Shown: positions 3,405-28,902 of the stretch, one piece after another
How positions within the stretch are numbered: position 1 is the first letter of the stretch
How the letters are laid out: the number at the start of each line of letters is the position of its first letter
DNA from: Escherichia coli O127:H6 str. E2348/69
GTDB taxonomy: Bacteria > Pseudomonadota > Gammaproteobacteria > Enterobacterales > Enterobacteriaceae
NCBI RefSeq assembly: GCF_000026545.1
Contig: NC_011601.1
Direction: 5' to 3' (one strand)
Length of the DNA: 64,000 nt
Translations under genes and position numbers: made by a program
The notes under the pieces: generated by a model
The model's database searches: none
What the model saw: the letters and a program-made list of their open reading frames with translations, nothing else
What the model was told of the DNA's origin: nothing

Positions 3405-4391
3405 ATGTCGCACGTAGAGTTACAACCGGGTTTTGACTTTCAGCAAGCAGGTAAAGAAGTCCTGGCGATTGAACGTGAATGCCTGGCGGAGCTTGATCAA
3501 TACATCAATCAGAATTTCACGCTTGCCTGTGAAAAGATGTTCTGGTGTAAAGGGAAAGTTGTCGTCATGGGGATGGGGAAATCGGGGCACATCGGGCGCA
3601 AAATGGCAGCAACATTTGCCAGCACCGGTACACCTTCATTTTTCGTCCATCCTGGTGAAGCCGCGCATGGTGATTTAGGCATGGTCACCCCGCAGGATGT
3701 GGTGATTGCTATCTCTAACTCAGGTGAATCCAGCGAAATCACGGCCTTAATTCCAGTGCTTAAGCGTCTTCACGTACCGTTAATCTGCATCACCGGTCGC
3801 CCGGAGAGCAGCATGGCGCGCGCCGCAGATGTGCATCTGTGTGTTAAAGTAGCGAAAGAAGCCTGTCCGTTAGGGCTGGCACCGACCAGCAGCACAACCG
3901 CCACGCTGGTTATGGGCGATGCCCTCGCTGTCGCGCTGTTAAAAGCACGCGGCTTTACTGCTGAAGATTTTGCGCTCTCACACCCAGGCGGCGCACTGGG
4001 TCGTAAACTTCTGCTGCGCGTAAACGATATTATGCATACGGGCGATGAGATCCCGCATGTTAAGAAAACGGCCAGTCTGCGTGACGCATTGCTGGAAGTT
4101 ACCCGCAAAAATCTTGGTATGACTGTCATTTGCGATGACAATATGATGATTGAAGGCATCTTTACCGACGGTGATTTACGCCGTGTCTTCGATATGGGTG
4201 TGGATGTTCGTCAGTTAAGTATTGCCGATGTGATGACACCGGGGGGAATACGCGTGCGCCCAGGCATTCTGGCCGTTGAGGCACTGAACTTAATGCAGTC
4301 CCGCCATATCACCTCCGTGATGGTTGCCGATGGCGACCATTTACTCGGTGTGTTACATATGCATGATTTACTGCGTGCAGGCGTAGTGTAA
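3405..4391 (+). CDS. kdsD: KdsD, D-arabinose 5-phosphate isomerase (SIS plus tandem CBS domains)
   Basis: ORF 3384..4391; start moved to ATG at 3405 (MSHVELQPGFDF), 328 aa. Confidence 0.93.
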   Translation: MSHVELQPGFDFQQAGKEVLAIERECLAELDQYINQNFTLACEKMFWCKGKVVVMGMGKSGHIGRKMAATFASTGTPSFFVHPGEAAHGDLGMVTPQDVVIAISNSGESSEITALIPVLKRLHVPLICITGRPESSMARAADVHLCVKVAKEACPLGLAPTSSTTATLVMGDALAVALLKARGFTAEDFALSHPGGALGRKLLLRVNDIMHTGDEIPHVKKTASLRDALLEVTRKNLGMTVICDDNMMIEGIFTDGDLRRVFDMGVDVRQLSIADVMTPGGIRVRPGILAVEALNLMQSRHITSVMVADGDHLLGVLHMHDLLRAGVV

Positions 4392-6082: not shown

Positions 6083-6808
6083 ATGGCAACATTAACTGCA
6101 AAGAACCTTGCAAAAGCCTATAAAGGCCGTCGCGTGGTAGAAGACGTCAGCCTGACCGTCAACTCCGGGGAGATTGTCGGTCTGCTGGGGCCAAACGGTG
6201 CCGGTAAGACCACCACTTTCTACATGGTTGTTGGCATTGTGCCGCGCGATGCGGGCAACATCATTATTGATGATGACGATATCAGTCTGCTGCCTCTACA
6301 TGCACGCGCGCGCCGCGGTATCGGCTATCTGCCGCAGGAAGCCTCCATTTTCCGTCGCCTCAGCGTTTACGATAACCTGATGGCGGTACTGCAAATTCGT
6401 GATGACTTGTCTGCTGAACAACGTGAAGACCGCGCGAACGAGCTGATGGAAGAATTTCACATTGAGCACCTGCGTGACAGCATGGGGCAGTCACTCTCCG
6501 GGGGTGAACGTCGCCGTGTAGAAATTGCCCGCGCACTGGCTGCGAATCCGAAATTTATTCTGCTCGACGAACCGTTTGCCGGGGTTGACCCGATCTCGGT
6601 TATCGACATTAAACGCATCATTGAGCACCTGCGCGACAGCGGCCTGGGCGTACTGATCACTGACCACAACGTGCGTGAAACACTGGCGGTTTGTGAGCGC
6701 GCTTATATCGTCAGTCAGGGGCATTTGATCGCCCACGGCACGCCTACAGAAATCTTACAAGACGAACACGTTAAGCGTGTATACCTTGGGGAAGACTTCA
6801 GACTCTGA
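6083..6808 (+). CDS. lptB: LptB, LPS export ABC transporter ATPase
   Basis: 241 aa, Walker [13 protein letters not shown] signature LSGGERRR. Confidence 0.96.
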
Positions 6809-6855
6809 TAGGGTAGAAGTTTGCGACGTTTTAGCAGGAGAGTACGATTCTGAAC

Positions 6856-8289
6856 ATGAAGCAAGGTTTGCAACTCAGGCTTAGCCAACAACTGGCGATG
6901 ACGCCACAGCTCCAACAGGCAATTCGTCTGTTGCAGTTGTCGACGCTGGAACTTCAGCAGGAGCTACAGCAGGCGCTGGAGAGCAATCCGCTGCTTGAGC
7001 AAATCGACACTCATGAAGAAATCGACACCCGCGAAACGCAAGACAGTGAAACACTGGACACCGCCGACGCGCTCGAACAAAAAGAGATGCCGGAAGAGCT
7101 GCCGCTCGATGCCAGTTGGGACACCATTTACACCGCTGGTACACCATCCGGCACCAGCGGTGACTACATTGACGACGAGCTGCCGGTCTATCAGGGCGAA
7201 ACGACGCAGACCTTACAGGATTACCTGATGTGGCAGGTCGAGTTGACACCGTTTTCCGACACTGACCGCGCTATTGCTACCTCTATCGTCGATGCCGTTG
7301 ATGACACCGGTTATCTGACTGTCCCGCTGGAAGATATTCTCGAAAGTATGGGCGATGAAGAGATTGACATCGACGAAGTTGAAGCCGTCCTTAAGCGGAT
7401 CCAACGGTTTGATCCGGTCGGTGTGGCGGCAAAAGATCTGCGTGACTGCCTGCTGATCCAACTCTCCCAATTCGATAAGACCACGCCATGGCTGGAAGAG
7501 GCAAGACTGATCATTAGCGATCATCTCGATCTATTAGCCAATCACGACTTCCGCACTTTAATGCGCATCACGCGTCTGAAAGAAGATGTGCTGAAAGAAG
7601 CCGTCAATCTGATCCAGTCGCTCGATCCGCGCCCCGGGCAGTCGATCCAGACTGGCGAACCTGAGTATGTCATTCCAGATGTGCTGGTGCGTAAGCATAA
7701 CGGTCACTGGACGGTAGAACTCAACAGTGACAGCATTCCGCGTCTGCAAATCAACCAGCACTACGCCTCGATGTGCAATAACGCGCGCAACGATGGTGAT
7801 AGCCAGTTTATCCGCAGCAATCTGCAGGATGCCAAATGGTTGATCAAGAGTCTGGAAAGCCGTAACGATACGCTACTGCGCGTGAGTCGCTGTATCGTTG
7901 AACAGCAGCAAGCCTTCTTTGAACAAGGCGAAGAATATATGAAACCGATGGTACTGGCCGATATCGCCCAGGCTGTCGAAATGCATGAATCGACGATATC
8001 TCGCGTGACCACGCAAAAATACCTGCATAGTCCACGAGGCATTTTTGAACTAAAGTATTTCTTTTCCAGTCACGTCAATACCGAGGGCGGCGGCGAAGCT
8101 TCCTCCACGGCTATTCGTGCGCTGGTGAAGAAATTAATCGCGGCGGAAAACCCAGCGAAACCGTTGAGCGACAGCAAGTTAACCTCTTTGCTGTCGGAAC
8201 AAGGTATCATGGTGGCACGCCGCACTGTTGCGAAGTACCGAGAGTCTTTATCCATTCCGCCGTCAAACCAGCGTAAACAACTCGTTTGA
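6856..8289 (+). CDS. rpoN: RpoN, RNA polymerase sigma-54 factor
   Basis: 477 aa, Gln-rich N-terminus, acidic region, C-terminal RpoN box [10 protein letters not shown]. Confidence 0.97.
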
Positions 8290-21323: not shown

Positions 21324-22754
<1,431 letters not shown>

Positions 22755-22767
22755 GCGAGGTAACAAT

Positions 22768-22796
22768 AAATTCGCCAGACAGTGTCTGGCGAATTT
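22768..22796. terminator. Bidirectional hairpin shared by convergent gltD and yhcH
   Basis: Inverted repeat AAATTCGCCAGAC-AGT-GTCTGGCGAATTT directly after gltD stop and before yhcH stop. Confidence 0.7.
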
Positions 22797-22821: not shown

Positions 22822-24154
<1,333 letters not shown>

Positions 24155-27419: not shown

Positions 27420-27442
27420 TATACCTTTATACCTGTTATACC
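27420..27442 (-). promoter_or_regulatory. NanR operator: three tandem GGTATA repeats upstream of nanA
   Basis: Plus strand TATACC TT TATACC TGT TATACC = minus strand GGTATA ACA GGTATA AA GGTATA, 36-58 bp upstream of the nanA ATG. Confidence 0.75.
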
Positions 27443-27505: not shown

Positions 27506-28297
27506 TTATTTCTTTTTGTTGGTGGTCTGACCGAAGGCGTGCCAGGTAGCAGAGACGCTGTTGAGATGCGATTGCAACGCGCGATCGGCTTCGTCAGGAT
27601 CATGACGGCGGATCGCGTCAACGATCGCAATATGCTGTTGATAGCTAACGTTGTTATGCTCATGCAGAGCCTGATCAGCCACGGTTGGACGTGCGGCGAT
27701 TAGCCAGTCGAGCAGGGCAACGTGGATCGCCATGAAGATTGGGTTACCAGGGATCTCCGCCAGAACGCGGTGGAAATCAACGTCTGAGCGAATGAATGCC
27801 GCGTTGTTATCCAGCGACTGACTGTTGATTTCCAGTGCTTTTGCCAGCAAATCGATTTGCTCATTGGTGGCGTGTTCAGCCGCATAGCGCACCAGGCTGG
27901 ATTCAAAGAACAGACGTAATTGTTCGAAATGGGCAATCCCACCAGGATGAGAAAGGAAATCTTTCGCCATGCCGGAAAGCTCGCCGATGATGGTGTCCGC
28001 AGAAGGACGTGAGACGCGAGCGCGTTCGCCGTTGTTTATCTGCACCAGACCTTTGCGTTTTAACGCTGCCAGCGCTTCGCGCACCGAAGGACGCCCGACG
28101 TTAAAGAACGCCATCAGTTCGCGTTCAGACGGTAATTGTTCACCTTCGCCAAATTCACGACGGCGGATCATCTGTTCCAGCTCTTCTTCCACCATTTCGG
28201 AGAGTTTTTTACGCGCCAGCGGGCGGCTACGCAAGTTGCGACCAATTGCAGGTGAAGAATCTTCGGTTTGCGAATCAAATGCGTTCATAGGACTCAT
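27506..28297 (-). CDS. nanR: NanR, GntR/FadR-family repressor of sialic acid catabolism
   Basis: 263 aa, N-terminal HTH, C-terminal FCD domain. Confidence 0.95.
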
Positions 28298-28375
28298 TCA
28301 GGAAAATGCGTTAGCGAATAATAACGACGCTATCGTAGCACAGTATCAAAGTCAGGCGAAAAGATGACAGATAGC

Positions 28376-28400
28376 AAAACAGGCCACATGGGCCTGTTTT
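28376..28400 (-). terminator. Rho-independent terminator of sspB
   Basis: Perfect stem AAAACAGGCC / GGCCTGTTTT immediately 3' of the sspB stop, with A/T runs on both sides. Confidence 0.7.
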
Positions 28401-28404
28401 CATT

Positions 28405-28902
28405 TTACTTCACAACGCGTAATGCTGGTCGACCACCGCGTGGTGGCTGCGGTGGTTCATCGTCAGGATGAGTGTCATCATCGTGATCTGGCTTGTCGCC
28501 ATCGATAACCGACATAACGGTTTCGTTGTCTGCCGATGCCTCTTCATCATTCATGATGCTGGCATCTTCATCGTAGGCAGCTTCAGGCTCAAACATCGTG
28601 CCTGCGCCATTTTCACGGGCGTAGATAGCCAGCACGGCAGCCAGCGGCACAGAAACCTGACGCGGAATGCCACCAAAGCGCGCGTTAAAGCGCACCTCAT
28701 CATTCGCCAGTTCCAGATTGCCGACAGCACGCGGCGCAATGTTGAGTACGATTTGCCCGTCACGCGCATATTCCATAGGAACCTGCACGCCAGGGAGCGT
28801 CACATCCACCACCAGGTGCGGCGTGAGCTGGTTATCCAGCAACCACTCATAGAATGCACGCAGCAGATAGGGACGACGTGGTGTTAGCTGTGACAAATCC
28901 AT
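28405..28902 (-). CDS. sspB: SspB, ClpXP adaptor / stringent starvation protein B
   Basis: 165 aa, acidic linker and C-terminal ClpX-binding tail RGGRPALRVVK. Confidence 0.96.
   Translation of the reverse strand: MDLSQLTPRRPYLLRAFYEWLLDNQLTPHLVVDVTLPGVQVPMEYARDGQIVLNIAPRAVGNLELANDEVRFNARFGGIPRQVSVPLAAVLAIYARENGAGTMFEPEAAYDEDASIMNDEEASADNETVMSVIDGDKPDHDDDTHPDDEPPQPPRGGRPALRVVK

Follow-up and report, generated by a model that had tools for sequence, protein, structure and literature searches.

A known locus very similar to the one described here is that of E. coli K-12. In strain MG1655 (NC_000913) the genes nanA (b3225), nanR (b3226), dcuD (b3227), sspB (b3228) and sspA (b3229) follow one another in this order, which agrees with the statement, put down in an earlier note on this DNA, that dcuD lies between nanR and sspB in K-12. 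The dcuD gene of K-12 comprises 1,368 bp on the strand opposite to nanR and sspB, and its product matches the DcuC family (PF03606) of Pfam over the full length (E = 3e-142). Where PMC6414658 cites Janausch & Unden (1999), DcuD is described as a cryptic paralogue within the DcuC anaerobic C4-dicarboxylate carriers.

Alignment of alleles with and without the gene places the dcuD cassette between the hairpin that follows sspB and the conserved nanR promoter block. The K-12 cassette measures about 1.69 kb (positions 6560-8250 of the K-12 locus, L001) and consists of dcuD as its sole gene, an AT-rich upstream region of 310 bp and 13 bp downstream. The GC content of dcuD is native-like (51%), and that of the 310-bp region is 32%. 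No mobile-element signature was detected around the K-12 cassette, and its ends carry no terminal repeats beyond chance-level short repeats and the candidate terminator hairpin.

The nanR-sspB junction of strain E2348/69

In strain E2348/69 the two genes that flank dcuD in K-12 are direct neighbors. The window matches this strain at 100% identity. The window, by which we mean the whole stretch of 64 kb that was analyzed, contains nanR and sspB on the minus strand, with sspA, rpsI, rplM and zapE in line beyond them (Table 1). Pfam assigns GntR and FCD domains to NanR and an SspB domain to SspB. Both the open reading frame listing and the sequence itself bear out the noted distance of 107 bp between the two genes, and from the sspB stop to the fourth codon of nanR (Met4, see below) there are 116 bp in the window versus 1,798 bp in K-12.

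Table 1. Coordinates of the features discussed in the text, as positions within the window.
Feature	Position	Strand	Length or motif	Basis or remark
gltD	21336-22754	+		
Palindrome	~22769-22796			within the ~70 bp between gltD and nanQ
nanQ/yhcH	22822-23286	-		
TATACC repeats	27420-27425, 27428-27433, 27437-27442		three copies (GGTATA on the nanA strand)	nanR-nanA intergenic region
nanR	27506-28297	-		ORF listing; annotated as nanR in E2348/69; GntR/FCD-family repressor of the sialic-acid regulon
nanR Met4 ATG	28288-28286	-	ATG	probable start codon
sspB-nanR spacer, dcuD-less allele	28298-28404		107 bp	116 bp to nanR Met4
nanR leader	to ATG at 28288	-	about 40-43 nt	
Candidate nanR extended -10	28332-28342	-	TGTGCTACGAT (TG-n-TACGAT)	43 nt upstream of Met4 ATG
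TGcTACGAT part of the candidate extended -10	28340-28332	-	TGcTACGAT	
nanR -35/-10 spacer	28354-28338	-	17 nt	
Candidate nanR -35	28355-28360	-	TTCGCC (TTCACC in most genera)	sequence and conservation only
Empty site	28367-28375	-	9 bp, GCTATCTGT	between hairpin and conserved nanR promoter block
Hairpin	28376-28400		10-bp stem, AAAACAGGCC-ACATG-GGCCTGTTTT	terminator scan
sspB	28405-28902	-		ORF listing, annotation, Pfam SspB; ClpXP specificity-enhancing factor

The absence of dcuD from this junction is complete. No open reading frame of the DcuC family (~455 aa, PF03606) was found between nanR and sspB. The spacer contains just two open reading frames of at least 20 aa, with 30 and 35 aa, and therefore no remnant of a transporter with multiple transmembrane segments, as had been noted from the sequence. 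If K-12 DcuD was compared by tblastn against all 64 kb, the best match had an E value of 0.9, and neither tblastn up to E 10 nor blastn with a word size of 7 revealed any dcuD remnant in the window.

The hairpin previously proposed within the spacer was recovered by the terminator scan and by RNA folding. As RNA of the sspB strand it yields -18.1 kcal/mol with a z-score of -3.0 against shuffled sequences, and it is kept in all aligned genera. Its K-12 counterpart is inverted repeat I2, and in genomes that possess dcuD the hairpin lies between the convergent genes sspB and dcuD. The terminator scan called it on the plus strand only, which is the direction of dcuD in K-12, while on the minus strand, i.e. 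that of sspB, the run behind the full stem comprises just UUUUGCUAU, with the stem cut back to 6 bp. We thus regard the hairpin as a candidate intrinsic terminator of sspB.

Another part of the window deserves mention. Downstream of gltD, about 70 bp with a palindrome lead directly to nanQ (yhcH), and the K-12 sequence upstream of nanQ (the end of yhcG, L001 1-1005) has no counterpart in the window. Since K-12 carries gltF-yhcADEF-yhcG between gltD and nanQ, this gap would be a second and larger difference in gene content between K-12 and B2 strains, 5 kb from the dcuD site.

Distribution of dcuD and of the compact spacer

How common such a junction is within the species was surveyed in 5,426 complete E. 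coli genomes. We found nanR and sspB to be contiguous in 1,041 of them, and the 79 bp of spacer that are unique to the B2-type allele were present with at least 95% identity, and in a single copy each, in 1,039 genomes. An identical junction that occurs once in each of 1,039-1,041 independent complete genomes speaks against a misassembled or collapsed region as the cause of the missing gene, and the probability of such an artifact is practically negligible.

DNA of dcuD was detected in 4,386/5,426 genomes by megablast, and a sensitive blastn search returned the same 4,386, so that no diverged dcuD copies came to light in the dcuD-less genomes. Since the count stays at 4,386 even at low stringency, about 1,040 genomes are without any dcuD. 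The absence claimed for this locus is thus not only confirmed, without a remnant, but also extends to about a fifth of E. coli. Might the gene instead have moved, and persist intact elsewhere in the E2348/69 genome? The window represents 64 kb of the chromosome and leaves room for such a relocation. However, the genomes with dcuD and those with contiguous nanR and sspB complement each other almost perfectly (4,386 plus 1,041, hence 5,427 versus 5,426 genomes), the sensitive search adds none, and all 4,396 places at which dcuD was found are chromosomal, with a median of one per genome and none in the window. A relocated copy is therefore extremely improbable. That dcuD is not intact elsewhere, as the earlier note required, holds for the collection as a whole, and we infer it from these counts for the chromosome of E2348/69.

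Among the listed matches to the B2-type spacer are UTI89, SE15, F11, Nissle 1917, O25b:H4-ST131 and APEC O1:K1:H7, all of which belong, like E2348/69, to phylogroup B2. In turn, dcuD is carried by O157:H7, BL21, DH5alpha and other non-B2 strains. The dcuD-less allele is lineage-wide and not peculiar to E2348/69, and, judged by this handful of named strains, it apparently tracks phylogroup B2. One of the 1,039 spacer matches sits on a record classed as plasmid, which is probably a mis-assigned replicon or a chromosomal fragment.

A further observation concerns nomenclature. In most genomes PGAP labels the orthologue of K-12 dcuD as 'dcuC: anaerobic C4-dicarboxylate transporter DcuC', and consequently pan-genome tables based on gene names may conflate dcuD with the true dcuC. 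In a previous study dcuD was counted among the 'extended-core' genes with the lineage unmentioned (PMC12595684). Our literature search, which was a thin one, retrieved no work on dcuD in combination with phylogroup and nothing relevant on nanR in combination with dcuD.

For the wider distribution, one genome per species with NanR was scanned, which gave 80 loci mapped by tblastn. The order sspA-sspB-nanR-nanA without dcuD is the arrangement of most NanR-encoding Enterobacteriaceae that have sspB nearby. It was found in E. albertii, Salmonella enterica subsp. arizonae, Citrobacter koseri, C. amalonaticus, C. sedlakii, Kluyvera and Raoultella, and also in Yokenella, Trabulsiella, Lelliottia, several Enterobacter, Cedecea and Buttiauxella. 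The dcuD-less spacers elsewhere are 109-137 bp long and align with that of the window over its whole length. K-12-type Escherichia have dcuD at the same site, and so do many Citrobacter, among them members of the freundii complex. By this distribution, the compact form of the sspB-nanR region is the general enterobacterial state.

Divergence and origin of the two alleles

BLAST homology between K-12 and the window ends at 28299 and restarts at 28375. The alignment nevertheless shows that about 85 bp beside nanR are homologous in all genomes, yet strongly diverged between the two alleles of E. coli. We compared the alleles by pairwise identity over the 84 nanR-proximal alignment columns, a measure that is short and near saturation between genera. 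By this measure the window shares no more than 52% with K-12, as against 93% with E. albertii (L006), 88% with L002 and 80% with L007, all three of which lack dcuD. K-12, for its part, shares 91-96% with the dcuD-positive Escherichia L003, L004 and L005 (the latter being E. whittamii) and 61-73% with Citrobacter alleles.

L002 (NZ_JAATUR010000001.1, strain SCPM-O-B-8794) and L007 (CP089930.1, strain E69) are both recorded as 'Escherichia coli', and both lack dcuD. They are about 89-94% identical to the window in nanR, sspB, nanA and nanT, and 96.9-98.7% in sspA, and they probably represent cryptic clades or Escherichia species other than E. coli.

The flanks of the spacer give a different picture. 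When the window is compared with K-12, 0 differences fall in the first 200 bp of nanR, counted from Met4, and 3 in the last 142 bp of sspB. The diverged segment thus extends precisely from the stop codon of sspB to Met4 of nanR. This matters for the simplest scenario, in which a K-12-type ancestor of the B2 strains recently lost about 1.7 kb. On gene content such a loss would seem parsimonious, as the non-B2 E. coli and the close relatives L003-L005 all have dcuD, and the gene does decay in some strains (300081, MS 115-1 and the 34 genomes with less than 80% coverage described below). However, a recent deletion would have left K-12-type sequence beside nanR. Those 84 bp instead show 52% identity to K-12 and 93% to E. 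albertii, although K-12 matches the neighboring 200 bp of nanR without a difference. Moreover, no sequence of the K-12 cassette was found in the spacer of the window by BLAST. A recent deletion is therefore very unlikely.

Both alleles are instead old. The nucleotide identity between K-12 and Citrobacter is 77-80% for dcuD and 78-82% for the flanking nanA, nanR and sspB, so that the divergence of dcuD equals that of its neighbors, and each allele is shared across species. The gene has thus resided in a part of Escherichia and Citrobacter for roughly as long as these genera have been separate. Very probably, then, the window carries an old dcuD-less sspB-nanR allele, characteristic of phylogroup B2 and complete with a candidate nanR core promoter, and not the product of a recent deletion from a K-12-like ancestor. 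Each of the two alleles is shared with other Escherichia species. Next to the indel a short linked stretch has drifted apart to 52% identity, whereas the flanking genes would have been kept almost uniform within E. coli by recombination. The state of B2 would in this case be an inherited or anciently exchanged allele that matches the usual arrangement of Enterobacteriaceae. The direction of the historical event is a matter of inference: dcuD may have spread after a single gain, or it may already have been present in the ancestor of Escherichia and Citrobacter, with several losses afterwards. A neighbor-joining tree of the 84-bp block, which is too short and too diverged a region for this purpose, was set aside when gain was weighed against loss.

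As a sub-variant of this explanation, the B2 ancestor might have swapped a dcuD-positive allele for an imported dcuD-less one by crossovers in sspB and nanR, the donor being another Escherichia lineage (E. albertii-like or a cryptic clade). The sharp edges of the diverged segment at the sspB stop and at nanR Met4 would fit such an exchange, as would the identity to E. albertii, which is 93% in the spacer versus 87% in the first 100 bp of nanR and 88.8% in nanR overall. However, the difference between 93% over about 100 bp and the divergence of the flanks is not significant, the flanks of the junction are E. coli-like rather than E. albertii-like, so that no imported tract is visible beyond the spacer, and a retained ancestral polymorphism fits the data equally well. 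We hence consider an import possible, though with less than even probability.

Returning to the preferred explanation of an old B2 allele, one might speculate further, and only tentatively, that the spacer is a long-lived trans-species presence/absence polymorphism, of which the dcuD-less form is native to Escherichia and the dcuD-positive form stems from a Citrobacter-related lineage. The nanR promoter and leader that came with the dcuD-positive allele may then be Citrobacter-like (70-73% versus 52-63% identity), recombination may have cut the diverged tract down until just the non-coding segment was left, and the holders of the dcuD-less form may comprise B2, E. albertii and two other lineages.

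The candidate nanR promoter and the meaning of the locus

If the spacer separates sspB from nanR by so little, it should also hold the nanR promoter, as was previously argued. A candidate with a conserved extended -10 element supports this view. The block (T)TTCaCCC is found 17 nt 5' of the -10 in all aligned alleles, and in 65/81 loci, including loci in which nanR is located away from sspB, the conserved ATG is preceded by TGTGnTAnGAT at a distance of 32-53 nt. The candidate thereby shows the conserved TGnTAnnnT, with a -35-like hexamer 17 nt upstream, of an extended -10 promoter of the sigma-70 type. Owing to the weak -35, no promoter was returned by a generic sigma-70 scan of 28100-28600, and consequently the assignment rests on conservation and not on a consensus score. 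The searched literature gave no data on the transcription start of E. coli nanR. Based on the conserved motifs, the layout in the window would comprise the sspB hairpin, 9 bp, the -35 TTCGCC, a 17-nt spacer, TGcTACGAT and a leader of about 40 nt, and these elements probably function as the nanR promoter. In B2 the candidate sspAB terminator hairpin is situated about 15 bp upstream of the nanR -35, whereas K-12 interposes 1.7 kb with a convergent gene. With the hairpin this close, read-through into nanR is conceivable in B2.

The start codon of nanR requires attention as well. The annotated protein begins with MSPM in the window (codons 1-4, 28286-28297) and with MGLM in K-12. Met1-3 fall inside the diverged segment, and the ATG of Met1 is missing in L007, C. 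amalonaticus, C. sedlakii and Kluyvera. In contrast, 73/81 loci have the ATG of Met4, and a purine-rich GAG/AGG/GGG precedes it by 5 nt. Met4 is therefore probably the true start, which would result in a NanR of 260 aa and would make the annotated start three codons too long. At the other end of nanR, three TATACC repeats occur in the intergenic region toward nanA, which match the known NanR operator of the nanATEK promoter; it appears intact here.

What does the lack of dcuD mean for the cell? DcuD is cryptic: the carrier lacks evident expression and has no clear phenotype. Two matches (NZ_CM128587.1 and NZ_CP146665.1) show the gene broken, by an IS1 insertion in strain 300081 and by loss of all but the last 291 bp (a 21% remnant) in MS 115-1, and coverage is below 80% in 34 of the 4,386 dcuD-positive genomes. 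Such disrupted copies are consistent with weak selection on dcuD. Since some dcuD-positive strains carry them, the absence of the gene is unlikely to be of much phenotypic consequence.

The absence of dcuD in B2 is an ordinary accessory-gene difference, which any pan-genome table already records. What this study adds is the lineage-wide nature of the allele, the case against a recent deletion, the confinement of the divergence to a non-coding segment, a candidate promoter and a probable corrected start codon. Three aspects make the locus modestly useful nevertheless. First, the 79-bp spacer offers a clean marker at a single locus, which divides E. coli at about 19:81 and seems to follow phylogroup B2. 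Second, it can be seen here how recombination is able to restrict old divergence between alleles to some 100 bp on either side of and around an indel. Third, comparative footprinting yields a testable nanR promoter and raises doubt about the start annotated earlier. If the trans-species reading is true, NanR dosage might moreover differ systematically between B2 and other E. coli, because the promoter-proximal region and the leader differ and the candidate terminator lies near the -35 (15 bp) only in B2. Such a difference, if it exists, could shift the set-point of the sialic-acid regulon.

Taken together, the window and the K-12 locus agree in the flanking genes, in their order and orientation, in the sspB hairpin and in the core layout of the candidate nanR promoter (the -35 block and TGnTAnGAT), and nanR from Met4 as well as sspB are near-identical in sequence. 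K-12 differs by the additional dcuD with its 310-bp region of 32% GC, and by 84 bp of promoter and leader that are only 52% identical. The DcuC family (PF03606), to which the missing gene belongs, has no member encoded in the window. E. albertii and the other dcuD-less Enterobacteriaceae, in contrast, share the compact succession of hairpin, promoter block and nanR, with a spacer that in E. albertii is 93% identical to that of the window in its nanR-proximal part, while in the other dcuD-less genera identity falls to 54-63% outside the hairpin and the promoter motifs.
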